From Clostridia bacterium (lineage in GTDB: Bacteria; Bacillota; Clostridia; Oscillospirales; CAG-272): DNA of 64,000 nucleotides. Shown piece after piece: positions 7,691 to 62,075 of this stretch; positions within the stretch are counted from its first letter, which is position 1; the number at the start of each line of letters is the position of its first letter. The position numbers were made by a program, and so were the translations under genes. The DNA lies in the NCBI GenBank assembly GCA_017504785.1, contig JAFVQL010000010.1, forward strand, positions 25,165-89,164, written 5' to 3'. The notes under the pieces are model-generated. The model did not search any database, was not told the DNA's origin, and saw only the letters and a program-made list of their open reading frames with translations.

Positions 7691-9298
7691 TCAATCCACC
7701 ACAACGCGGCAAATGCCGAGATCGCTGTTTCCAAGCACCTGGATCATATCCACCAAAAGCTGATGCTCCTCTACGGGGAACTGCGTGAAGGAGAGATCCA
7801 CGGTATCCTCCGAGGGGATCGCGGCCTTGACCTTGATAAACACGTGCTCCTTCTTGAAGTAGCGAATGGTGTCCGCCATGAGCTGCTGAATGCGCGTCAT
7901 TACGTTGGGGTCTACGGGGTGGCGGAAGATGAGATGCACCTTTTTCTGCGTATAGGTGTATATCGGATCTACAGGCGAATTCGCTGCCATAGCAGCGCGG
8001 GCTTCCTCTGCCTTGCGAGCCTCTTCTGCGAGGCGGGCTTCTTCTGCGAGGCGGGCTTCTTCTGCGAGGCGAGCCTCTTCTGCGAGGCGGGCTTCTTCTG
8101 CCTTGCGAGCCTCTTCTGCAAGACGGGCTTCTTCTGCCTTGCGAGCCTCTTCTGCAAGGCGGGCTTCCTCTGCGAGGCGAGCCTCTTCTGCAAGGCGGGC
8201 TTCCTCTGCGAGGCGAGCCTCTTCTGCAAGGCGAGCTTCTTCTGCGAGGCGGGCTTCTTCTGCGAGGCGAGCCTCTTCTGCGAGGCGGGCTTCTTCTGCG
8301 AGGCGGGCTTCTTCTGCGAGGCGAGCCTCTTCTGCAAGGCGGGCTTCTTCTGCGAGGCGAGCCTCTTCTTCCTTGCGAAGCTCGATTGCTTCCAACGCCT
8401 GTGCGGCCAAGCGATCTCTTTCCTTCGCTTCCCACTCCAGCCTTGCCTGATTCTGCGCCTGGCGGCGAAGCTCGATCTCGCGCTCGGCGCGGTTCAGCTC
8501 GTGCGCCTTGATCTCTGCATCCAATGCAAGACGCTTGCGCTCCAGCTCATATTCTCTTCGCATAAGCTCCTGCTCTTTTTCAAGCATTTCCGCGCGAAGC
8601 TTTTTCTCCATTTCCGCGCGAAGCGCATCCATGTCTACGGCAGGCGCCACGGGCTCTTCAAGCGCAAAGCCTTCTTGTAAGAGTTCTTCTTCCGTTTCTT
8701 CGGTATCTGCAAGAGAAGCTTCTTCAAATGCTTCTTCCAAGTGTTCTTGTGCAACCATTTCTTCGGATGCGAAATCGAACGCCTCGTTCTCTTCGGGGGC
8801 TGCTTCAGTCACGTCTTGCGAAAAAGGCGCATCTTCCGTTTCTTCCCCGTCAAATATCTCGGCTTGCGCGCAAACTACATCCTCTTCGATCGGCGCATCT
8901 TCCGCTTCGGAAAGCGCCTCGGCCTCTTCCGATGCCTCGGCTTCCTCAAGGGATTGCTCTTCCACCTCGGTCTGCTCGAAGATCTCTTCGTCCTCGCGCG
9001 CCTCTGCGGGCGCGGCCGTATTCTCCTGCACGAAGCTACGCATATAGGCCATTGCCTTTTCATACGCCTCGTCCTTTTCCTCACAAAGCGCAATCTGCGG
9101 TGCTTCGGGCGCGGGCTGTAATTTGCCAAGGATCTCTTCAAGCTTATCCTTGATCTGCCCTGCGTGCTCCGCGACCTTTTCATCGATCGTGATCTTCGTC
9201 AGCGTTCCGCGCTTCACGGCGCGCTTAATGATCTCGCGCCATTCCGTTACATTCTTGCGCCCCATGGCCGCACGGTATTTATCCGCATCGGCCTGCAC
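7691..9298 (-). CDS. Acidic coiled-coil protein with 21 tandem EEAR[LKA]A hexapeptides, function unknown
   Basis: 535 aa from a GTG start at 9298 with a weak RBS. The order is an N-terminal basic segment, a long Glu/Asp-rich region, heptad-like REYELERKRLALDAEIKAHELNRAEREIELRR, the repeat tract, then a ~95-aa globular C-terminus (DPIYTYTQKKVHLIFRHPVDPNVMTRIQQLMADTIRYF...). Confidence 0.75.
   Translation of the reverse strand: MQADADKYRAAMGRKNVTEWREIIKRAVKRGTLTKITIDEKVAEHAGQIKDKLEEILGKLQPAPEAPQIALCEEKDEAYEKAMAYMRSFVQENTAAPAEAREDEEIFEQTEVEEQSLEEAEASEEAEALSEAEDAPIEEDVVCAQAEIFDGEETEDAPFSQDVTEAAPEENEAFDFASEEMVAQEHLEEAFEEASLADTEETEEELLQEGFALEEPVAPAVDMDALRAEMEKKLRAEMLEKEQELMRREYELERKRLALDAEIKAHELNRAEREIELRRQAQNQARLEWEAKERDRLAAQALEAIELRKEEEARLAEEARLAEEARLAEEARLAEEARLAEEARLAEEARLAEEARLAEEARLAEEARLAEEARLAEEARLAEEARKAEEARLAEEARKAEEARLAEEARLAEEARLAEEARLAEEARKAEEARAAMAANSPVDPIYTYTQKKVHLIFRHPVDPNVMTRIQQLMADTIRYFKKEHVFIKVKAAIPSEDTVDLSFTQFPVEEHQLLVDMIQVLGNSDLGICRVVVD
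7991..8368. repeat. Tandem 18-bp repeat x21 (encodes EEARLA x17, EEARKA x3, EEARAA x1 on the minus strand)
   Basis: 378 nt of units such as GCGAGGCGGGCTTCTTCT, GCGAGGCGAGCCTCTTCT and GCAAGGCGGGCTTCCTCT. The units differ mostly at synonymous positions. All six frames are open here, which produces several spurious track ORFs. Confidence 0.95.
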
Positions 9299-9754: not shown

Positions 9755-9934
9755 GAAACGTCTCCTTATATTATTCTTTTAATTATTTTAACATAAATAA
9801 AACGAAAAAGCAACAGTTTTTTGTCATTTTCCGCGCATGCAAAAAAATATTTTTGAAAATATTTCAAAGATTTTCCGCTCGCGATGAAAGGGTTTTGTTT
9901 TTTGATTTCGCGTTCCCGATCTTTGAGAAAAAAG

Positions 9935-10057
9935 AAAACGCGAGAAATTCGCAGAATTTCAACCTTGATCCAAAAAAGCGCATCAAAAAGAGAACGGAGA
10001 TAAAGACTTTTTTTCGTCCTTATCTCCGTTTTTTATTCGGTTATGCCAAAAGGCGTT
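9935..10057 (+). repeat. Extra copy of the 3' module (hairpin P2 + terminator) of the intergenic element
   Basis: About 98% identical to 10152-10276, with a 217-bp offset. It contains hairpin GAAATTC-gca-GAATTTC (9944-9960) and the terminator stem GGAGATAAAGAC/GTCCTTATCTCC (9996-10027) followed by TTTTTT. Confidence 0.9.
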
Positions 10058-10063
10058 AACATT

Positions 10064-10262
10064 GGGGCAATACGGATTTTCGGCAGAAATTTTCGGCTAA
10101 CGACCGAGAGCGGTATTTTCATACCGCGAGGGAGGAAACGAAAATAGAATAAAAACGGGAGAAATTCGCAGAATTTCAACCTTGATCCAAAAAAAAGCGC
10201 ATCAAGAAGAGAACGGAGATAAAGACTTTTTTTCGTCCTTATCTCCGTTTTTTATTCGGTTA
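10064..10262 (+). ncRNA. Candidate structured RNA / modular intergenic element, copy A (unassigned family)
   Basis: Homologous to 52488-52697. Hairpin P1 is GCGGTAT-tttc-ATACCGC (10110-10127). Hairpin P2 is GAAATTC-gca-GAATTTC (10161-10177). A rho-independent terminator sits at 10215-10246 and is followed by a T-tract. Both flanking genes are on the minus strand, so this would be a separate + strand unit. Confidence 0.5.
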
Positions 10263-10291
10263 TGCCAAAAGGCGTTTGCCCCAAAAAAAGA

Positions 10292-11257
10292 TTATTTTTG
10301 GAGAAGGTGAATAGCAAATCCCGCGATCTCGTCCTTAAAGTAAACGAACTTGGGCTTGCCGGTCTTCTCGTCGTAAGTAATGGAGCTTTCGTCAAATTCG
10401 ATGCCCATTCTCTTGAAATATGCCATTGCACGGTCTACGAAATTGGTGCGGATCGCAATGTGACCGCACTTGCCGGGGCCCTTCTGCTTCATGAATTCGA
10501 ATGCATCGCCTGCGAAGATGGACTTGCTTCCATCCTTCAATGCAAGGCCGAACATCATCTCGAAGAGCTTTGCAGCCTTTGCAGCCTCGTCGGCATTCTC
10601 GTTATTGATACCCATGTGAAGGAACTCAAGACCGAGCATGGTCTTCACCGCATTCTTCGTCAGCGCGGTGATCTCATCCCACTTCTTCTCTCTGATCAGG
10701 TCATCCTTTACCATGAAGGAGCCGCCGCAAGCAACGATCTTGTTAAACTTGAGGTACTCAAGAAGGTTATCGGCGCTGATACCGCCGGTGGGCATGAACT
10801 TCAGCTGACCGTAGGGCGCGGCCATAGCCTTCAGCATCTTCAGGCCGCCTGCCGCCTCTGCGGGGAAAAACTTAACCGTGGTCAGACCAAGCTCAAGCGC
10901 CGCCTCAACGTCCGAGGGGTTGGAGCAACCGGGGAGCATGGGAACACCTTTGGAAAGGCAGTACGAGGTAACCTTGGGATTGAGTCCGGGAGAAACGAGG
11001 AACTTGGAGCCTGCCGCGATCGCCGCATCTACCTGCTCCGTGGTCAGCACCGTGCCGGCGCCAACGAGCATTTCGGGATAAGCCTCGGTGATCTTCTTGA
11101 TCGCCTCTGCCGCACAAGCGGTACGGAAGGTGATCTCCGCTGCGGGCAATCCGCCGTCGATCAGCGCCTTTGCAAGGGGAAGCGCATCGTCTGCATTCTC
11201 GATCTTAATCACCGGGATCAGACCGATGGAATAAAGCTGTTCAATCATCTTGTTCAT
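10292..11257 (-). CDS. eda: KDPG/KHG aldolase (Eda) fused to a C-terminal VOC/glyoxalase-like domain
   Basis: ORF 10292..11284. I moved the start to ATG 11257 (MNKMIEQLYSIGLIPVI), which has RBS AAGGAG. Aldolase motifs: GLPAAEITFRT, GAGTVL, KFFPAE, PTGGI. An extra ~110 aa follows (LGLEFLHMGINNEN...GHIAIRTNFVDRAMAYF...FAIHLLQK). Confidence 0.85.
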   Translation of the reverse strand: MNKMIEQLYSIGLIPVIKIENADDALPLAKALIDGGLPAAEITFRTACAAEAIKKITEAYPEMLVGAGTVLTTEQVDAAIAAGSKFLVSPGLNPKVTSYCLSKGVPMLPGCSNPSDVEAALELGLTTVKFFPAEAAGGLKMLKAMAAPYGQLKFMPTGGISADNLLEYLKFNKIVACGGSFMVKDDLIREKKWDEITALTKNAVKTMLGLEFLHMGINNENADEAAKAAKLFEMMFGLALKDGSKSIFAGDAFEFMKQKGPGKCGHIAIRTNFVDRAMAYFKRMGIEFDESSITYDEKTGKPKFVYFKDEIAGFAIHLLQK

Positions 11258-11393
11258 AACAAGTCTCCTTTGTTTTATTATCACTTATCATTATACTATA
11301 ATCCTCCCCCTCTAACAATTGCAAAAATTGACCAAGGCTTTGCAAATATTGCCCTCAAAAAAGAAAGTTTTGGGACCAAGCGGAGAAAAGGCA

Positions 11394-15323: not shown

Positions 15324-15340
15324 CTAAAAAGCATTAAAAA

Positions 15341-15379
15341 AAGAACGCGGTCGCACCGAGAAAGGGCAACCGCGTTCTT
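15341..15379. terminator. Bidirectional terminator between convergent addB and the feo operon
   Basis: The 11-bp stem AAGAACGCGGT / ACCGCGTTCTT has an A-run upstream and a T-rich stretch downstream, so it reads as hairpin plus U-tract on both strands. Confidence 0.75.
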
Positions 15380-15381
15380 TA

Positions 15382-15573
15382 TCATTTTTGTAAAGAATTG
15401 TTTTCTTTTTCCGGATCGGAAGGGCAAGCACCATTGCATGCGCCGGGACAACTTTTACCGTACGGGCATCCGATACATTTCGTTCCTTTTTTCTTCTGGC
15501 GCACAAGATAGAATACCGCGCCGCCGATGATAAGAACGGTCAGGGCGATCGGCAAGATCTCAAGAAAGGTCAT
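15382..15573 (-). CDS. FeoB-associated Cys-rich membrane protein
   Basis: 63 aa with an N-terminal TM helix followed by CIGCPYGKSCPGACNGAC. It overlaps the feoB stop by 4 nt. Confidence 0.85.
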   Translation of the reverse strand: MTFLEILPIALTVLIIGGAVFYLVRQKKKGTKCIGCPYGKSCPGACNGACPSDPEKENNSLQK

Positions 15574-49845: not shown

Positions 49846-50340
49846 ATGAAAATCAAAAAGCTTTCTACCTTTGAATACCTGCTTTATATCGGCATTGTCG
49901 CCGTCGGCATCCTGCTTGACCAGCTAACCAAACGGCTCGCGGTGAAATTCCTTCTCCCGATCGACACCGTGCCGATCATCCGCGATGCTTTGCATCTGAC
50001 GTACGCGGAGAACCGCGGCGCGGCCTTCGGCATACTGGCGAACAGCCGCTGGGTATTCCTCATCATCTCCACCGCGGCGATCCTTGCCATGGCCTTCTAT
50101 CTTTTCTCCGGGCTTTCCGAGGGAAGGCTTGCGGGCATCGCGCTCTCCATGCTGATCGCGGGCGGCATCGGCAATATGATCGACCGCATCGCACTCGGCT
50201 ACGTAGTGGATTTCATTGACTTTCGCCTGATCAACTTCGCGATCTTCAACGGCGCGGATTCCTTCGTTTGCATAGGTGCAGGGCTTTTGATCCTTGCGCT
50301 CTTGCGCGACGTTATCCGAGAAGGAAAGGAAAAGGGCTGA
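49846..50340 (+). CDS. lspA: Lipoprotein signal peptidase (signal peptidase II)
   Basis: ORF 49681..50340. I moved the start to ATG 49846 (MKIKKLSTFEYLLYIGIV). Motifs: YAENRGAAFG, GGIGNMIDR, VVDFIDF. Confidence 0.92.
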   Translation: MKIKKLSTFEYLLYIGIVAVGILLDQLTKRLAVKFLLPIDTVPIIRDALHLTYAENRGAAFGILANSRWVFLIISTAAILAMAFYLFSGLSEGRLAGIALSMLIAGGIGNMIDRIALGYVVDFIDFRLINFAIFNGADSFVCIGAGLLILALLRDVIREGKEKG

Positions 50341-50341
50341 T

Positions 50342-51277
50342 ATGGAACTGACCGTGAAGGACAGCGGCGCGCGCCTCGATTCTTTCATCGCGGCAAGCAC
50401 CGAGCTTTCCCGCAGTGCGGCCGCAAGGCTTTGCGAGGAGGGTGCCGTCACCGTCAACGGCAAGGTACAGAACAAAAAATACGCCGTTCGCGAGGGTGAC
50501 GCAATCGAAATTCAGATCCCCGAGGCCGTGCCGACCGAGGCAAAGCCCGAAAACATACCGCTCGACGTCGTTTACGAGGATGAGGACATTATCGTTATCA
50601 ACAAGCCCTCGGGTATGGTGGTGCATCCCGCGCCCGGAAACTATGAGGGAACGCTCGTGAACGCACTTCTCTACCACTGTGAGGGCGCGCTTTCCGGCAT
50701 CGGCGGCGAGATCCGCCCCGGCATCGTGCATAGAATCGATAAGGATACGAGCGGCCTTTTGGTGGTTGCGAAGAACGACCGCGCACACCGCGCGCTCGCA
50801 GAGCAGCTGGAGGGGCATCGCATCGTCAGAGAATATCACGCGCTCGTCACGGGCGGCTTTCGCGAGGACAGCGGCACAGTCAGCAAATGGATCGGTCGGC
50901 ATCCCGTGGATCGCAAGAAAATGGCCGTTCTGCCGGAGGGGGCAAGCGGCGCAAAGGATGCCGTGACGCATTACGAGGTACTCGCGCGCTTCGGCGAGGT
51001 GTCGTATATAAAGCTGCATCTCGAAACCGGCCGCACGCACCAGATCCGCGTGCACATGGCGTCTCTCGGGCATCCTCTGCTGGGTGACGAGGTATACGGC
51101 GGCGGGAAAACGCGCTTCGAAAAGGCACATAAAAATCTCTTTGACGGCCAGGCACTGCACGCAAAAAGACTCTCCTTTTTGCATCCGACAAGAGGTGTGC
51201 GCGTTTCTTACGAATGCCCCTTGCCCGAAAATTTTGAAAAAGCGCTCTCGCTTTTAAAAAAAGAAGCGGAAAAATGA
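50342..51277 (+). CDS. rluD: 23S rRNA pseudouridine synthase, RluD subfamily
   Basis: ORF 50294..51277. I moved the start to ATG 50342 (MELTVKDSGARLD). It has an S4 domain and the catalytic motif HRIDKDTSGLLVVAK. Confidence 0.92.
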   Translation: MELTVKDSGARLDSFIAASTELSRSAAARLCEEGAVTVNGKVQNKKYAVREGDAIEIQIPEAVPTEAKPENIPLDVVYEDEDIIVINKPSGMVVHPAPGNYEGTLVNALLYHCEGALSGIGGEIRPGIVHRIDKDTSGLLVVAKNDRAHRALAEQLEGHRIVREYHALVTGGFREDSGTVSKWIGRHPVDRKKMAVLPEGASGAKDAVTHYEVLARFGEVSYIKLHLETGRTHQIRVHMASLGHPLLGDEVYGGGKTRFEKAHKNLFDGQALHAKRLSFLHPTRGVRVSYECPLPENFEKALSLLKKEAEK

Positions 51278-51573: not shown

Positions 51574-52455
51574 ATGCAAAAGAGCACGGAGCTTTTCACT
51601 TTTTCCGAGGATGGATCGCGCATGCTTCACACGGTGCAGGGGCTTTCTCTTCCGATACGGATCTCGGAATATCTGGGAGCGCACCTTTCACTTTCGGTCA
51701 CGCTCATCAAGCGCATCAAATACGGCGGCGTTTTTCTTAATGGCGAGAACGTGCACATGCGCGCCGAGGTGAAAAACGGCGACGAAATTGAGATCCTCTT
51801 CCCCGAAGAAAAAAGCGAGGGCATCCCGCCGATCGATCTGCCGCTTGCGGTGCTATACGAGGACGCGCATCTTTTGGCAGTCTGCAAGCCGAAGAATATG
51901 CCAACGCACCCCTCGAAGGGCAATTCCCTGCCGACGCTTGCAAACGCCGTGATGCACTACTACGGAAAGAATTTCGTTTTTCGCGCGGTCACAAGGCTTG
52001 ACAGAGATACCTCGGGCATCGTGCTGATCGCGAAAACGCAGTATGCCGCGGCAAAGCTTTCCGAGGATATGAAGGCGGGGCGCTTCGGCAAGATCTATAC
52101 CGCTGTGGTGAAGGGCGTACCCGATCCAAAGGGCGGGCACATCGATGCCCCCATACGGCGCGAGGCAGAGGGCTCGATGAAGCGCATCGTGGCACCCGAC
52201 GGAAAAAGCGCTTTGACGGAATATCGCACGCTCTGCGTGCGCGAGGACGGCAATGCCGTTCTCTCCGTTCGCCTTTATACGGGGCGCACGCATCAGATCC
52301 GCGTGCATCTTTCGCATATCGGGCATCCGCTTCTCGGAGATTTTCTATACGGAGAAAAGAATGAGGAAGGGTATCTTCTGCACTGCACAAAAATGGAGCT
52401 TCCGCATCCGATCACGGGAGAAATGCTAATTATAGTTAGCGATCCGCCGTTTTGA
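51574..52455 (+). CDS. RluA-family pseudouridine synthase (second paralogue)
   Basis: 293 aa with an S4-like N-terminus, the catalytic motif TRLDRDTSGIVLIAK, and GRTHQIRVHL. Confidence 0.9.
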   Translation: MQKSTELFTFSEDGSRMLHTVQGLSLPIRISEYLGAHLSLSVTLIKRIKYGGVFLNGENVHMRAEVKNGDEIEILFPEEKSEGIPPIDLPLAVLYEDAHLLAVCKPKNMPTHPSKGNSLPTLANAVMHYYGKNFVFRAVTRLDRDTSGIVLIAKTQYAAAKLSEDMKAGRFGKIYTAVVKGVPDPKGGHIDAPIRREAEGSMKRIVAPDGKSALTEYRTLCVREDGNAVLSVRLYTGRTHQIRVHLSHIGHPLLGDFLYGEKNEEGYLLHCTKMELPHPITGEMLIIVSDPPF

Positions 52456-52487
52456 GCGAGGCTCAAAAAGCAAAACAACAAAACCAA

Positions 52488-52697
52488 GGGGCGAACGGAT
52501 TTAGAGCAGAAATTTTCGGCTGACGAGCGATAATTGTACAAGAGTACAATGAGCGAGGAAACGGAAATAGAATAAAAAACTTTTGATTAAATGGAGAAAA
52601 CCGCAGGTTTTCAACCTTAATACTTTTAAATTTGCATAAAGCAACGGCAGAAACACTGTTTTTCAACAATGCTTCTGCCGTTTTTTATTCGGTTATA
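52488..52697 (+). ncRNA. Candidate structured RNA / modular intergenic element, copy B
   Basis: Homologous to 10064-10262. P1 is ATTGTAC-aaga-GTACAAT (52533-52550). P2 is GAAAACC-gca-GGTTTTC (52596-52612). The terminator stem is GGCAGAA.../...TTCTGCC (52646-52679), followed by the same GTTTTTTATTCGGTTAT tail. It starts 33 nt after the RluA-family stop codon. Confidence 0.5.
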
Positions 52698-52843
52698 ATC
52701 AAGCGAAGCATATCTGCAAGCTTGCTTGCAAGTATGCGAGCGCAGATTGCTCGCGAGAGTATTCGCTTCCAGCGAATGTAGCACGCAGTGCCCGCCTTGG
52801 CGGTTCTCTCGCGATATGAGTATGCCTAAATACGACAGCCCCA

Positions 52844-53704
52844 TTAGAGCACCTTGGAAAGGAAATCCTTGAGCCTTGCATCCTTGGGGTTTCCAAAGAG
52901 CTCTGCGGGAGATCCTTCTTCCTTGATCTTGCCCTCGTCCATAAACAGAACGCGGTCTGCCACCTCGCGGGCAAAGCCCATCTCGTGGGTGACGATCACC
53001 ATCGTCATACCCTCCTTTGCGAGCTGCTTCATAAGATCCAATACCTCGCCGACCATCTCGGGGTCCAAAGCGGAGGTAGGCTCGTCAAAGAGGATCACCT
53101 CGGGATTCATTGCAAGAGCGCGCACAATCGCAATTCTCTGCTTCTGACCGCCCGAAAGCGTGGAGGGATATACGTTTGCTTTTTCTTCAAGGCCGATGCG
53201 GCGAAGAAGCGACATTGCATTCTCCTCGGCCTTGGCCTTGATCTCGGCCTCGGTCGTTTCGAGCGGAAGGAGCGCCTTTTTCTCTTTCTTAAAAAGGTTT
53301 GCAAGCCTGATAAAGAAATTCTTTCTCTTCTTTGCTCTCAAGTCTCTTACGCCGACGTAAACCGGTGCGAGCATAATGTTTTCTTTTACGGTTTTGTTAT
53401 TAAACAGATTGAACTGCTGGAACACCATGCCGATGTGCTCGCGATGCTTGTTGATATTGACGCTCATGTCGGCAATATCCACACCGTCGAAGATGATCGA
53501 GCCGCCCGAGGGGTCCTCCATGCAGTTGATGCAACGAAGGAAGGTGGATTTACCGCATCCCGAAGGGCCGATGATGGCAATCTGCTCACCGTCGCGGATA
53601 TCAAGGTCAACGCCGCGAAGAACCTCGAGATTGCCGAATTTTTTTGTTAAGCCTCTGACAGACAAAACCGTTTTATTTAAAGCCATTTCTTTTTCCATGA
53701 TCAT
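52844..53704 (-). CDS. Amino-acid ABC transporter ATP-binding protein (GlnQ-like) with a ~34-aa basic insertion
   Basis: 286 aa. It has [24 protein letters not shown] and [11 protein letters not shown], and forms an ATGA overlap with the permease stop. The insertion [34 protein letters not shown] lies between the Q-loop region and the signature motif. Confidence 0.92.
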
Positions 53705-57666: not shown

Positions 57667-57800
57667 TTCGCCTTGCACAAGGAAAAAGTCACCTCGCGGG
57701 TGATCTTTGGAGGGCAGGTATACTTACGGGCGAAAAAAACTTTGCTATACTAATGGCACGAGAGCGAAGGACTCTCGAATACGAAAGAAAGGAGAACTCC

Positions 57801-58136
57801 GTGAAAGCAAGAAAAAAGAGCTACGCGAAGGATCTGCCGCGCAGACTCTACACCTTCTTTATTGGCTATGACGACGAAAGGAGCGCCCCCAGCCTTCAAA
57901 AATTCGCCAGAGCCAACGGCTTTACGACCGAGGAGCTGCTCACCTTCCGAAGGCACGGCGACTTTGAGCGCGCACTCCGCGAATGCAATGAAATTCGCAG
58001 GGATTACCTGATAGACAGAGGATTGACCAAGCGGTTTGACGCATCCTTCGTCAAATACCTTCTGGACGGCGAGGCTTCCGAGCAGCAGAGCGAGGAGGAC
58101 TCCTCTCTTTCGGTGACGCTCGAGGTGCTCCCATGA
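57801..58136 (+). CDS. Terminase small subunit (putative)
   Basis: ORF 57753..58136. I prefer GTG 57801 (VKARKKSYAKDL), which has AAAGGAGAA 6 nt upstream. The HTH-like stretch is SLQKFARANGFTTEELLTF. It overlaps the terL start by 4 nt. Confidence 0.65.
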   Translation: MKARKKSYAKDLPRRLYTFFIGYDDERSAPSLQKFARANGFTTEELLTFRRHGDFERALRECNEIRRDYLIDRGLTKRFDASFVKYLLDGEASEQQSEEDSSLSVTLEVLP

Positions 58137-59497
58137 AGCTGCATCTCACGGTCACGAAAAAGCAAAAGGCCTTCATGGATGCCGATGCCACCGAGGTTCT
58201 CTTCGGCGGCGCGGCGGGCGGCGGAAAATCCTACGGCCAGCTGGTGGACGCGCTGATCGTCGCACTTCGCTATCCCGGCTCCAAGCAGCTGATCCTACGG
58301 CGCAGCTTTGCGGAGCTTGAAAAATCTCTGATCCGAACGTCACTTGCACTCTTTCCGAGAAAGATCTACCGCTTCAATCAGTCCACCCACGTCGGGCGAT
58401 TTCACAACGGCTCCTGCCTTGACTTCGGGTACTGTGCGGCGGAAAACGACGTATACCAGTATCAGAGCGCGGAATATGACGTCGTTCGCTTCGACGAGCT
58501 GACCCATTTCACCGAGGCACAGTATCTGTATCTCATCTCCCGCGTGCGCGGCGCAAACGCCTTTCCCAAGCAGATCAAATCCTCCACCAACCCGGGCGGC
58601 GTTGGGCACGGATGGGTCAAGGCGCGGTTCGTCGATCCCGCACCGCCGAGCACTCCCTTCACGGGCAGGGACGGAATGAAACGCATCTTTCTTCCCTCTC
58701 TGCTCTCGGACAACCGCTTTTTAAGCGAGGGCGATCCAAGCTACAAAGAGCGCCTGCTCGCTCTCCCCGAGCGGGAGAGAAAAGCGCTTCTGCACGGTGA
58801 CTGGAATATCTTTGACGGGCAGTATTTTTCGGAATTTTCCACGGCAAAGCACACCTGTTCCCCCTTCGAGATTCCAAATTCATGGAGAAAATGGCGCACG
58901 GTGGACTACGGACTTGACCGCCTCGCCTGCCTCTGGATCGCCGTTGACCCCGAGGGGCGCGCCTACGTTTACCGCGAATTCTGTGCTTCGGATCTGCCGA
59001 TCAAGGAGGCGGCAGACGCCATTCTTTCCCACACGCCGAAAAACGAAGAGATCTACGCTACCTTGGCGCCGCCCGATCTTTTCAGCCGCAGTCAGGAAAG
59101 CGGAAAAAGCAAGGCAAGCCTTTTCGCCTCCTACGGCGTGCCGTTCACGAAATGCTCCAACAACCGAGAGGCGGGCTGGCTCTCGGTGAAGGACCTTCTG
59201 CGCGAAAGGAACGGCAAGCCCTCTCTTTCCTTTTTCTCGCATTGCACGGAGCTGATCCGATGCCTGCCCGCCTTGCAGGTCGATAAGCGCCGCCCCAGCG
59301 ACTGCGCGACCGAGCCGCACGATATCACCCACGCCCCCGATGCCCTGCGCGGCTTCGCCGTTTCCTTTGCAAGGCCCGCGCCCATAAAGAGCACCGCGAG
59401 CGGCCGCGTGTGGAGCGCGGATATGTGGGAGGATTATTTTGCCGCGGACGAGGAAGGAAAGCAATACCTAAAACGCAAATACGGAGAACCCCTATGA
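58133..59497 (+). CDS. Terminase large subunit
   Basis: 454 aa. Walker A-like FGGAAGGGKSYG, Walker B VVRFDELTHF, and a C-terminal RNaseH-like nuclease region (VDYGL...DAL). Confidence 0.88.
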   Translation: MKLHLTVTKKQKAFMDADATEVLFGGAAGGGKSYGQLVDALIVALRYPGSKQLILRRSFAELEKSLIRTSLALFPRKIYRFNQSTHVGRFHNGSCLDFGYCAAENDVYQYQSAEYDVVRFDELTHFTEAQYLYLISRVRGANAFPKQIKSSTNPGGVGHGWVKARFVDPAPPSTPFTGRDGMKRIFLPSLLSDNRFLSEGDPSYKERLLALPERERKALLHGDWNIFDGQYFSEFSTAKHTCSPFEIPNSWRKWRTVDYGLDRLACLWIAVDPEGRAYVYREFCASDLPIKEAADAILSHTPKNEEIYATLAPPDLFSRSQESGKSKASLFASYGVPFTKCSNNREAGWLSVKDLLRERNGKPSLSFFSHCTELIRCLPALQVDKRRPSDCATEPHDITHAPDALRGFAVSFARPAPIKSTASGRVWSADMWEDYFAADEEGKQYLKRKYGEPL

Positions 59498-61263
59498 CAC
59501 AAAACGAAAACGCATCTCAGCGGCTTTCCTACTTTACATCTCTTTATGAAAAAAGCAAGAACGCCGCGCAAAGCGCGCTTGCGCTTTACGATCGGCACAT
59601 GCGCCAGTACCGCGGCAGTGCCGAGATCGACGGATCGACCGAGAAGGCCGTCACCGTCCGCAACATCACCTACGAAATGATCGAAGGCCAGGTATCCTCG
59701 CACATTCCGCCGCCCAAGGTGGACCCCACGGCTTACAGTGAAGAAAAGGTCCGCCTCGCGCAATCGGTGGAAAGACTGCTCGTCGCCGTGCGCGAAAAGC
59801 TCCCCTACGAGCAGATGAACGATCTCGACGAGCGCTTTTGCTATATCTACGGCGGAAGCGTTTGGTTCGCGGAATGGGACAGCCGCGCGGGCGTCGGCAA
59901 CAAGATCGGCGGCGTGACGCTGCATTGCCTATCCCCCAAGGACTTCATTCCCCAGCCCGGCGCACGCTCCGTGGAGGATATGGATTACTGCTTTCTTCGC
60001 TTCGACACCACGAAGGCAGAGCTGATACGCAAGTACGGCGTTAGCGAAGAATCCCTTTCTCTTGCCGAGCGAGAATACGACAGCGACGCCTACGAGGGGG
60101 ATGCCGACGAGGGCGCGACGGTGATCCTCTGCTTCTATCGCGACGAGAATGGAAGGATCGGCGAATACGCCTTTTCAGGCGAGCTTACGCTGACCGACAT
60201 TCCCGATTACTACGCGCGAAAAAGACGGATCTGCACCGCTTGCGGAGGCGAGGAGCAAAATTGCCTTTGCGAGCATCCGCGCTTCACGCTTGAAAATCAG
60301 AACGAGGAGGGCCTGCATCTGCACACTCTCCCCGACGGCAAGCAGGTATTCGCGCCCGCACGCGATGCAAAGAGCCATCTTTATATCCCCTATTACACGC
60401 CTAAGCGTTTCCCCATCGTCATCCGAAAAAACACCTCTCTTGAGGGAAGCCTTTTCGGTGCATCCGACTGCGAGGTGATCCGACCGCAGCAGCAGGCGAT
60501 CAACAAGATCGAATCCCGCATTCTGCAAAAGCTTCTGCGCGCCGGCGTTACCCCCGTCGTGCCCGAGGATGCGACCATTACGCTCAACAACTCGGTCTTC
60601 GGCCAGCTGATCAAGATGAAGCCCGGAGAAAGCGCGGCACAGTACGGCAAGGTGGATACCACGCCCGACATATCCCAGGATATTGCCGAGGCATCCCGTC
60701 TTTACGACCATGCCAAGCGCATTCTCGGTATTTCCGACGCGCTCGTCGGCATCGACAACGCAAAAAACGAATCGGGCTATGCAAGAAAGCTGCAGATCTC
60801 GCAGGCAACGGGACGGCTCGAATCCAAGCGAAAGATGAAGTATACCGCCTATGCGGAGCTGGATCGCCTGATCTTTGAGTATCACCTCGCCTTCGCGGAC
60901 GAGCCGCGAAGGATCTCTTACAGAGACGCCTACGGCCGCCTTCACAACGCGACCTTCAACCGCTACGATTTTATCGCCCCGGACGAAACGGACGGCTCGT
61001 TTTATTATGACGACGATTACCTTTTCTCCGTGGATCTGAACGGCGGCGCGGAGGCACAGCGCGAGCTTCTTTGGGAAAAGAACCTTGAAAACCTCAAAAG
61101 CGGCGCACTGGGCGATCCGACACTCGCCGTTACGCTGCTGCGCTATTGGCAATGCCAGGAGCGCGCGCATTACCCGTATGCACGAGAAAACGTGGAATAC
61201 TTCCAGAGCGCAATCAACGAGCAAACGGAGGCGAAGGCTAAAGCAGAGGAGGTGATCGTGTGA
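59494..61263 (+). CDS. Portal protein (putative)
   Basis: ORF 59410..61263. I moved the start to ATG 59494 (MTQNENASQRLSYF), which forms an ATGA overlap with the terL stop. Its size (589 aa) and position fit a portal. It contains a CxxC...CxC insertion. Confidence 0.7.
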   Translation: MTQNENASQRLSYFTSLYEKSKNAAQSALALYDRHMRQYRGSAEIDGSTEKAVTVRNITYEMIEGQVSSHIPPPKVDPTAYSEEKVRLAQSVERLLVAVREKLPYEQMNDLDERFCYIYGGSVWFAEWDSRAGVGNKIGGVTLHCLSPKDFIPQPGARSVEDMDYCFLRFDTTKAELIRKYGVSEESLSLAEREYDSDAYEGDADEGATVILCFYRDENGRIGEYAFSGELTLTDIPDYYARKRRICTACGGEEQNCLCEHPRFTLENQNEEGLHLHTLPDGKQVFAPARDAKSHLYIPYYTPKRFPIVIRKNTSLEGSLFGASDCEVIRPQQQAINKIESRILQKLLRAGVTPVVPEDATITLNNSVFGQLIKMKPGESAAQYGKVDTTPDISQDIAEASRLYDHAKRILGISDALVGIDNAKNESGYARKLQISQATGRLESKRKMKYTAYAELDRLIFEYHLAFADEPRRISYRDAYGRLHNATFNRYDFIAPDETDGSFYYDDDYLFSVDLNGGAEAQRELLWEKNLENLKSGALGDPTLAVTLLRYWQCQERAHYPYARENVEYFQSAINEQTEAKAKAEEVIV

Positions 61264-61913
61264 CAGAGGATCTCACACGCCTGAAAAAGCAGAACGCCCC
61301 CGACAGCTTCAGCGTTTGGCTTCGCAAGCAAGGCGCGGCGGCAAGTACCGCCGGCGCGGACAGCGCGGCAAGGGCTTTCGCAGCAAACACGCTCACGCAC
61401 GGCACGGGCGCGGAACGCCTTTTTGACAAGGGTTTGGAGGAAAGCGGCTACGCGCGCTACCTTTCCGATCAGGCAAAAAAGAGCTTTGAAGAGCAAAAAA
61501 AGGCTCTTGCCACCGAAAACGCCGCAAGAAAGGAAAAGGATCTTTCGGGCTACGCGAGGTATCTTACCTCGCACGAGGAAAGCCAAAAGAGCCTTACCCG
61601 CAGAGTGACCGAAAGCATCGGCAAGGGCAAGAGCTTTGATCTTGAAAACGCCTACCGCGTGGCACTCGCCGCGGGACTGACCGAGGAAAACGCGAGAGCC
61701 GCCGCCGAGATCGGCATCGGTGCGGCGAAAAAGCAGGCGACCGCACAGCTGCTTGAAATGATCCTTGAGAAAAGATTGCAGGCAAACCGCGTGAAGAAAT
61801 ATGCGCTCGAGATAGGATTTTCCGAGCAAGAGGCAGAAACCTTCGGTGCTTACGCCAAGGACATCAACGCCGTCAGCATCCCCTCTAAAATCCCCGAAAA
61901 ACTCTTCGAATAA
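61260..61913 (+). CDS. Phage head-module protein, unknown function
   Basis: 217 aa from a GTG start that overlaps the portal stop. It has an internal duplication (SGYARYLSDQ / SGYARYLTSH). Confidence 0.6.
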   Translation: MTEDLTRLKKQNAPDSFSVWLRKQGAAASTAGADSAARAFAANTLTHGTGAERLFDKGLEESGYARYLSDQAKKSFEEQKKALATENAARKEKDLSGYARYLTSHEESQKSLTRRVTESIGKGKSFDLENAYRVALAAGLTEENARAAAEIGIGAAKKQATAQLLEMILEKRLQANRVKKYALEIGFSEQEAETFGAYAKDINAVSIPSKIPEKLFE

Positions 61914-61937
61914 ATTTAAAACACGAAAGGAAATTTT

Positions 61938-62075
61938 ATGAAAAAGGAAAATTTTTCTCCCTACGCTACCAATAAGGGCGGCAAGATCGCAGCCCCCAAA
62001 AGCACCGCCAAGGACGAGCCTCGCGCCACCAAAACCACGGGTGACGACCTGCGCGTAAAAAGAAAGAAGGGCTGA
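61938..62075 (+). CDS. Small basic ORF (45 aa) in the head module
   Basis: Below the ORF-track length cut-off. ATG 61938 has GAAAGGA 7 nt upstream. The translation is MKKENFSPYATNKGGKIAAPKSTAKDEPRATKTTGDDLRVKRKKG. It ends 2 nt before the next gene. Confidence 0.4.
   Translation: MKKENFSPYATNKGGKIAAPKSTAKDEPRATKTTGDDLRVKRKKG

Follow-up and report, generated by a model that had tools for sequence, protein, structure and literature searches.

A modular, structured repeat located after stop codons in uncultured Clostridia, probably mobile and probably a bidirectional terminator

In a 64,000-nucleotide stretch of a Clostridia bacterium genome (contig JAFVQL010000010.1, the whole stretch being called the window below), the spacer between an RluA-family pseudouridine synthase gene and a convergent ABC ATPase gene is occupied by an element, locus B (52488-52842, plus strand), that belongs to a previously undescribed repeat family of uncultured rumen and gut Clostridia. 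Pattern scans recovered about 60 further copies, often in tandem, from some nine Clostridia metagenome-assembled genomes (MAGs) and from metagenomes, and a literature search by sequence strings and keywords returned no description of the element. Its copies share a branched fold kept by compensatory base changes and sit downstream of stop codons, and at both window loci they stand where orthologous genomes have an ordinary terminator. The reading favoured here, with some reservation, is that locus B is a copy of a dispersed, modular, structured repeat that replaces terminators and that is probably mobile and probably a bidirectional terminator itself.

Fold of the element and selection on its base pairing

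A first-pass annotation of the window had matched 52488-52697 to 10064-10262 as homologous intervals sharing near-identical blocks, and alignment and a repeat finder agree on this relationship between locus B and the second copy, locus A (matches D4, 76% identity over 84 nt, and D17, 100% over 19 nt). The shared blocks are AGAAATTTTCGGCT[A/G]ACGA, AGGAAACG[A/G]AAATAGAATAAAAA, TTTCAACCTT and CCGTTTTTTATTCGGTTAT, the last two being identical in both. The resemblance greatly exceeds what chance would give. A profile built from 17 copies yields E=1e-58 and 7e-45 for the pair in the window, values that are partly circular since both copies are inside that profile, and independent support for the similarity comes from matches to copies outside it. 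The interval originally delimited at locus B does lie within the element, but falls short of its full extent: similarity among copies runs past the supposed post-terminator tail into GCCTAAATRCGACAGCCCC, the inverted complement of the 5′ end GGGGCGAACGGATTTAG, and the unit continues to 52842, a length of 355 nt with an optional insert included. Folding of the extended units as single sequences gives z scores of -5.8 (B, 52488-52842) and -5.3 (A), as opposed to -3.0 and -3.6 for the respective shorter intervals. The core unit measures ~220-240 nt, and sizes in the family range from 220 to 470 nt. The parts of locus B are as follows.

52456..52487, plus strand: A-rich 5′ flank GCGAGGCTCAAAAAGCAAAACAACAAAACCAA, read from the minus strand as a U-rich run that follows the closing helix
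52488..52507, plus strand: 5′ strand of the closing helix, GGGGCGAACGGATTTAGAGC, pairing with 52824-52842 (RNAalifold on 17 and on 39 copies, single-sequence minimum-free-energy fold)
52512..52568, plus strand: 5′ domain, consisting of P0, the GA-rich non-canonical segment, P1a and the P1 hairpin
52512-52518 with 52562-52568, plus strand: P0 (covariation)
52521-52530 and 52551-52560, plus strand: GA-rich non-canonical segment
G52527-C52554 and C52528-G52553, plus strand: P1a, 2 bp
52533-52550, plus strand: P1 hairpin (5/7 pairs covary)
52570..52580, plus strand: 5′ strand of P3, the A-rich linker GAATAAAAAAC, pairing with 52680-52690
52593..52616, plus strand: P2 hairpin GAAAACC-GCA-GGTTTTC, lengthened by GG/CC and followed by the conserved TTTCAACCTT
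52645..52680, plus strand: P4, a long variable hairpin CGGCAGAA...TTCTGCCG, the terminator stem of the first-pass annotation
52680..52696, plus strand: 3′ strand of P3, GTTTTTTATTC, and GGTTAT, serving also as the U-tract after P4 (RNAalifold, covariation)
52697..52823, plus strand: optional 127-nt insert module with two extra hairpin domains
52824..52842, plus strand: 3′ strand of the closing helix, GCCTAAATACGACAGCCCC

The plus strand folds into a closed multi-branch structure made up of the closing helix (GGGGC.../...GCCCC), the 5′ domain, and a long-range A/U helix, P3, that encloses P2 and P4. RNAalifold, applied to 17 and then to 39 distinct copies, independently yields the closing helix, P0 (AUUUUCG/CGRAAAU), the 2-bp P1a, P1, P3, P2 and P4, and single-sequence folds of the extended units have the same architecture. 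The three helices first proposed are thereby found to exist, accompanied by the closing helix, P0, P1a and P3, which had been missed. As described at the outset, P1 is entirely resequenced between the two copies and is still a 7-bp stem with a 4-nt loop (ATTGTAC-aaga-GTACAAT in B, GCGGTAT-tttc-ATACCGC in A), P2 carries two compensatory swaps (GAAAACC/GGTTTTC in B, GAAATTC/GAATTTC in A) around a GCA loop present in both, and the base of the large hairpin, GGCAGAA/TTCTGCC in B, differs in sequence from that of A with its pairing kept. Contrary to the initial proposal, the large hairpin and its U-run do not form a terminal terminator followed by a separate conserved tail; U-run and tail are a strand of P3 and of the closing helix, with the A-rich linker GAAUAAAAAAC pairing in P3 with the supposed terminator U-tract GUUUUUUAUUC. 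A small open reading frame (ORF) in P2, MEKTAGFQP, was considered as a coding feature and rejected, as it is not conserved in locus A.

Selection on secondary structure, combined with conserved unpaired or non-canonical stretches, had also been suggested, and an alignment of 39 distinct copies (A4) upholds it. In this alignment the 51 pairs of the nine helices are 95.5% paired and 35 of them show double-sided changes, a well-supported fold for a repeat family from poorly studied rumen and gut Clostridia. None of 500 shuffles reaches any of the five measures used, and controls with slid partners attain at most 49% pairing and at most 16 double-sided pairs. Double-sided changes occur in nine of the 14 pairs of the closing helix (helices 1-3) and in eight of the ten pairs of P3 (helix 7), 99% of whose cells are paired, so that base pairing accounts for the conservation of the tail. 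The P1 pairs that do not covary include an invariant U-A and an invariant A-U near the tip; P2 (helix 8) covaries at four of five pairs, and P4 (helix 9), a poorly aligned region, differs in sequence in nearly every subfamily while its pairing stays. For P0, which reads AUUUUCG/CGGAAAU in locus B, a scan that left this helix free returned the covariants AUCGUCG/CGGCGAU, AUUGUCG/CGGCAAU, AUCCUCG/CGAGGAU and ACCGUCG/CGGCGGU. The ends of the element are terminal inverted repeats, GGGGCGAACGGATTTAG... pairing with ...CTAAATACGACAGCCCC; they covary as well, and are equally explained as the closing helix of an RNA.

The strand on which this pairing is selected can be read from the tolerated mismatches. 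With the poorly aligned P4 excluded, 64 cells hold G.U and 16 hold A.C; G.U recurs, in at least three copies, at five pairs and A.C at none, identifying the plus strand as the one with selected pairing. Computed stability is equal for the two strands, the plus strand being the more stable in 20 of 39 copies. Within the 5′ domain, conservation of the GA-rich segment between the two window copies and in copies found by the profile is independent of the search patterns. Set opposite each other, its two sides, UGACGAGCGA and GAGCGAGGAA, can make up a continuous helix in which C-G or G-C pairs stand between three tandem G.A pairs, an arrangement considered as a possible kink-turn or tandem G.A motif; C39-G72 is invariant and G42-C69 becomes C-G in locus A. 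In the present authors' own reading of the sequence, the segment may indeed form these three tandem G.A pairs, and the conserved 5′ domain may be the best candidate for a site of protein recognition, its GA-rich hairpin being a candidate new module for recognition of RNA or single-stranded DNA (ssDNA) by a protein.

Copies, genomic placement and modules

The family was assembled by two pattern scans and a profile search. The first scan, of a genome collection, used two conserved blocks, TTCGGCTNACGA...GAGGAAACGNAAA, in a pattern that fixed part of P0, and gave 20 matches in about nine MAGs of uncultured Clostridia, Eubacteriales and Ruminococcus, with up to six strict-pattern copies per MAG; among these 20, L021 was dropped as a chance match inside an ORF that reads, by eye, like gyrA/parC. 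The second scan, of metagenome contigs with P0 left free in the pattern, gave 27 true copies, and two further matches, L042 and L043, were discarded as chance occurrences in GC-rich coding sequence. The profile search added further full, half and tandem copies. Tandem or partial copies are frequent (locus A of the window, L010, L015, L017, L019, L034, L036, L037), MAG JAZQTA has at least six copies, and many copies lie at contig ends, as is expected of repeats in short-read assemblies. The genes that flank them are unrelated housekeeping genes, including those for IleRS, PFK, GalT, GidB, a ParB-like protein and a nitroreductase. No element was found in plasmid and phage collections by BLAST or in viral contigs by pattern scan. 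Rfam 15 has no match in the window at gathering threshold, and in E-value mode (E up to 10, applied to both loci and to a copy with the upstream module described below) it returned only sub-threshold hairpin noise.

As first noted, the copy at locus B begins 33 nt after the stop of the RluA-family gene (ORF 51574-52455, Pfam PF00849); at its 3′ end, the convergent ABC ATPase gene (52844-53704, minus strand) has its stop codon 1 nt away. All five RluA orthologous sites (73-83% identity, on long contigs) are without the element. They keep the order of an RluA gene followed by a convergent ABC transporter gene, with a spacer of 36-56 nt compared with 388 nt in the window, and this spacer is a compact bidirectional intrinsic terminator only, e.g., AAAAAAGAGAAGATCAAAAGATCTTCTCTTTTTT. 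One of these empty sites is in JAZQTA, itself a carrier of copies elsewhere. Locus A, a full copy without insert, ends 9 nt from the stop of a KDPG aldolase gene (10292-11284, minus strand), and at all three aldolase orthologues (89-94% identity) the stop is followed by a plain terminator and the element is missing. In the closest of the three, the window can be aligned again over the promoter region of the following gene, with ~430 nt of tandem element standing in the window in place of the terminator. Neither window locus retains another terminator. The earlier view of a conserved RNA gene or 3′ untranslated region (UTR) belonging to the locus is contradicted by this absence at five RluA/ABC-ATPase and three aldolase sites. 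The first-pass annotation had named two outcomes that would together speak against its own proposal, a family of only two copies and orthologous intergenic regions without the element; the second was observed, and the first was not, the copies numbering about 60.

Gene context was read from the calls of a codon model that had learned from gene calls in the database and that reproduced the known genes. Copies sit downstream of stop codons. Of 35 genes on the 3′ side, 32 are convergent, lying on the opposite strand (p=4e-7), and three are on the same strand; between GCCCC and the stop codon of this gene there are mostly 1-27 nt, as at both window loci. Of 34 genes on the 5′ side, 22 are co-oriented with the element. 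Among copies with both neighbours known, ten contexts are convergent, 11 co-directional and none divergent, against a baseline of 17% convergent and 16% divergent (enrichment of convergent placement, Fisher p=0.002). The immediate flanks are skewed in composition, with 45% A over the 15 nt on the 5′ side and 44% T over the 15 nt on the 3′ side against a background of ~25%, a pattern characteristic of a bidirectional terminator whose hairpin position is taken by the entire element. No other flanking motif, tetranucleotide or target motif is common to the boundaries. Locus B also contains the form of an intrinsic terminator after a stop codon, the GC-rich hairpin CGGCAGAA...TTCTGCCG followed by TTTTTTATT, which a simple terminator scanner passed over because of inner mismatches and its loop limit.

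Copies differ in their modules. The 127-nt insert of locus B, present in the window and in contigs of four other samples, is missing at the same locus in sample ERZ28594384 (L005 1156-1383, with an identical RluA protein), and is therefore polymorphic between samples. It occurs only at one junction, GGTTAT^GCC, in L011 and L023 as well. The insert copies of these two contigs differ at some predicted pairs with pairing kept (judged by eye, the pairs being uncounted), and the insert is bounded by TAT...TAT, which might mark a duplication of 3 bp or, alternatively, microhomology used in a deletion. Another module, an upstream hairpin of ~100 nt, GGGGCTGTCTCATTAAGAATTC...GAATTCTTAATGAGAACAGCACC, occurs 20 times, each time directly 5′ of the core, is absent from both window copies, and has a stem that covaries between MAGs. 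A promoter within it was considered and rejected, TATAAT being present on the minus strand in the JAZQTA copies and not conserved in those of CAZTWE. In MAG JAZNZE and in a metagenome contig, the 5′ domain alone (closing helix, P0, GA segment, P1) forms tandem arrays, with units of ~85-115 nt that are closed directly by the closing helix, then followed by a U-run, and that have no P2, P3 or P4. These modules and the remaining copies of the window are located as follows.

L008 4276-4373; L011 5044-5141; also in L022, L023, L024, L028-L031, L033, L035, L040, L048, L049, L051: upstream hairpin module
L020 1180-1461; L016 2832-2909 and 3236-3287; L039 213-348: arrays of the 5′ domain alone
Window 10064..10282, plus strand: locus A, full copy without insert
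Window 9934..10057, plus strand: tandem 3′-half copy (P2, P4 and tail), 99% identical to 10191-10276, profile E ~1e-14 to 2e-14

The 3′-half copy at 9934-10057 belongs to a 219-bp tandem duplication and brings the number of copies in the window to 2.5; ahead of it, a degenerate 5′ domain can be seen by eye from about 9868. Arrays in MAG JAZORO (L015 3741-3984; L017 2202-2521) contain a diverged paralogous domain, GGGCGAAGGGAGTTTAGGCGAAAATGTTTCATCACGACTCGAAGCAATACAAGGGTATTGCGAGTGGGAGTGAGGGGAGATTTGCGCC, in two to three repeats between core copies. In L054 (107-248), a further combination of modules, the 5′ domain leads into a simple terminator hairpin of another kind, and beyond that, by eye, lies a tRNA-like gene on the opposite strand. 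The copy at L009 6857-6974 is cut inside P2 and continues into apparent coding sequence in which no gene was called, a junction that may reflect either a rearrangement that truncated the copy or a join made during assembly. From a practical standpoint, the family causes metagenome assemblies to break up, and might be usable as a strain marker.

Some features of the surroundings may be recorded here. Two neighbouring pseudouridine synthase genes precede locus B, an RluD-like gene with an S4 domain (50294-51277) and the RluA-family gene, within whose catalytic regions a stretch of 74 nt is 74% identical at the DNA level. In relatives, glycoside hydrolase and major facilitator superfamily genes are found upstream of the RluA gene instead, so that this side of the neighbourhood is rearranged. 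About 5 kb downstream of locus B, at ~57800-62000 (L001 16228-20882), a group of phage-like genes, including those for a large terminase and a portal protein along with small unannotated ORFs, suggests a prophage or phage-derived island. On the side of locus A, an 18-nt tandem repeat of ~21 or more units (7920-8473) lies within a 535-aa ORF (7691-9298, minus strand) whose sole Pfam match is weak, sub-threshold and to a Plasmodium histidine-rich repeat protein family. An example of the normal terminators of this genome is the compact bidirectional terminator AAAAAAAGAACGCGGT...ACCGCGTTCTTTATCATTTTT at 15326-15385, after a 1096-aa ORF.

Proposed mechanism and rival explanations

Copies of the repeat would have been inserted, or recombined in, just downstream of stop codons, displacing the ordinary intrinsic terminator, and the element would then supply its flanking genes with a terminator and a 3′-end structure. 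In the plus direction, termination is predicted at P4, with its GC-rich base, directly followed by the U6-7 of the P3 strand. In the minus direction it may be brought about by the mirrored hairpins P4′ and P2′, each followed in locus A by a U-rich run, and/or by the closing helix, which in locus B is followed on that strand by a U-rich run complementary to the A-rich 5′ flank. Co-transcription is predicted as well, but, as a simple 3′-UTR arrangement, fails to explain all copies, the plus strand being antisense in some contexts (see below). Spread by a structure-recognising enzyme acting on single-stranded nucleic acid would fit the absent duplications, the paired ends and the conserved hairpin tips.

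Several observations weigh against this reading of locus B as a mobile, terminator-replacing repeat. No transposase or other candidate partner adjoins any copy, and none was seen with matching ends; nor is there a target-site duplication at the two comparisons of filled with empty sites (loci A and B). Pairing of the post-P4 U-tract with the linker is not typical of an intrinsic terminator, and the elaborate conserved 5′ domain is superfluous for a plain terminator. In nine of the 11 co-directional contexts the element is antisense to gene flow. The family-wide invariance of the GA segment is partly imposed by the search patterns. Termination and mobility, finally, are probable activities predicted from the sequence. 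A wider scheme can be put forward tentatively, in which the family would represent a novel class of large structured RNA with several domains, a self-propagating terminator cassette whose GA-rich 5′ domain would specifically bind a candidate protein. Such a protein could mediate the spread, RNA- or ssDNA-based, without target duplication and aimed at terminators, or could alternatively provide the host with a regulated 3′-end or insulator function between convergent genes. Any dedicated RNA or protein-binding function of the element is likewise a possibility to be held with considerable doubt.

The first-pass annotation was right that the element is more than a generic terminator. In the view taken there, the copies would be functional small RNAs (sRNAs), either siblings or derived from 3′ UTRs. 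The product would be an RNA of ~190 nt running from the 5′ domain to P4, whose GA domain and P2 flank bind a protein or target. Strong covariation, non-helical nucleotides common to both window copies independently of the search patterns, and the G.U bias towards the plus strand would all suit such an RNA, as would the resemblance of P4 and its U-run to a canonical terminator; the minimal variants (L016, L020, L039) retain exactly the 5′ domain, and the two invariant pairs towards the tip of P1, U-A and A-U, suggest that a specific sequence is recognised. This explanation is nevertheless judged unlikely. None of the eight orthologous sites carries the element, and two covarying helices, the closing helix and P3, reach across the supposed terminator, meaning that the selected fold needs sequence past the proposed 3′ end. 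No sigma-70-like site was found upstream of locus B and no conserved promoter-like block in the copy alignments, and no Rfam family matches. Multiple copies, tandem arrays of partial copies, optional modules, breaks at contig ends and placement after stop codons fit an interspersed, probably mobile repeat better than a sibling-sRNA family.

The same fold could in principle have been selected as ssDNA, for mobilisation by a hairpin-recognising enzyme of the REPIN/RAYT or IS200/IS605 kind, with any effect at the RNA level incidental. This would account for the missing target-site duplication, for ends that pair mutually and hairpins that vary in sequence with conserved tips, and for tandem, mosaic arrays; both strands fold equally well by computation, and G.T is tolerated in pairing on one strand only. 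It is set against the lack of a Y1/HUH transposase or other candidate near the copies, boundaries without a conserved tetranucleotide or target motif, absence from the viral, plasmid and phage collections, and a size and branching far beyond those of REP/REPIN or IS200-type ends, and is considered quite improbable. A cis-regulatory RNA (riboswitch or leader) or self-cleaving ribozyme is more remote still, and very hard to sustain. A conserved purine-rich internal segment between covarying helices invites the idea, and CUGACGAG...GAGGAAAC recalls the hammerhead core, resembling CUGANGA...GAAA by eye. However, the strands flanking this core pair together in the covarying P0, creating a two-way rather than a three-way junction, and three extra nucleotides separate helix II from GAAA; the element would have no gene to control in cis, 32 of 35 downstream genes being convergent, and no Rfam model matches even at E up to 10. 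Riboswitch and leader were hence rejected on gene context and the hammerhead on topology. CRISPR/tracrRNA, omega-RNA and bridge-RNA were also rejected, there being no arrays and no cas, tnpB, iscB or IS110 genes adjoining the copies; in this family the stems vary and the loops are conserved, the opposite of guide-bearing loops. A more general lesson of the terminator-replacing repeat is that convincing multi-helix covariation can stem from an interspersed repeat and not from a dedicated RNA gene.

Comparison with known repeats

By analogy, the family is placed among the small structured interspersed repeats resembling MITEs (miniature inverted-repeat transposable elements), its closest counterparts being SPRITE and BOX, with ERIC and bcr1 also related in kind. 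Many dispersed intergenic copies, presence/absence polymorphism at orthologous sites and terminal inverted repeats agree with a MITE-like nature, whereas the target-site duplication of such elements is not seen here. REP/BIME and REPIN sequences are extragenic, located at 3′ ends or between convergent genes, form mosaic or tandem arrays of modules, and are under selection for hairpin formation. Yet REPs are ~35 nt long, carry a GTAG-type motif, have a RAYT partner and occur mostly in Proteobacteria, and neither motif nor RAYT was seen with the present element. ERIC has size variants that arise from internal insertions at fixed sites.

ERIC/IRU, bcr1 and Correia share with the element a transcribed intergenic or 3′-end location; they are imperfect palindromes of ~100-170 bp that affect mRNA stability or termination, and in bcr1 compensatory changes keep the RNA structure (PMC3184786). 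They differ in their terminal inverted repeats and direct repeats (TA, 5 bp), in the transposase relatives known for some of them, and in being simple rod-like hairpins, in contrast to a multi-branch structure with long-range helices. BOX of Streptococcus pneumoniae is similarly modular, with optional or repeated self-folding internal modules and terminal repeats that pair as a duplex; it is co-transcribed with its neighbours, as is predicted for the element, and over-represented between convergent genes (PMC3049150). The boxA, boxB and boxC sequences are unrelated to the present ones, however, and BOX causes target-site duplications and is not specifically terminator-like.

The pneumococcal SPRITE is likewise interspersed, with the predicted fold of an oversized terminator, A-run and T-run ends and a strong enrichment near convergent 3′ ends; it has no demonstrated target duplication, and its co-option as a terminator has been proposed (PMC3049150). 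It is, however, an AT-rich sequence of ~105 bp with a single 18-bp duplex (PMC3049150), whereas the element described here, unrelated in sequence and from another host clade, spans 220-470 nt and has nine covarying helices, a GA-rich domain and optional modules. In size, in branching with long-range helices, in its conserved purine-rich domain, in sequence and in host clade, the present family stands apart from ERIC, bcr1, Correia, BOX and SPRITE alike. If terminators are truly replaced by it, a selfish or semi-domesticated sequence would have taken over a housekeeping signal, an event proposed but not shown for SPRITE.

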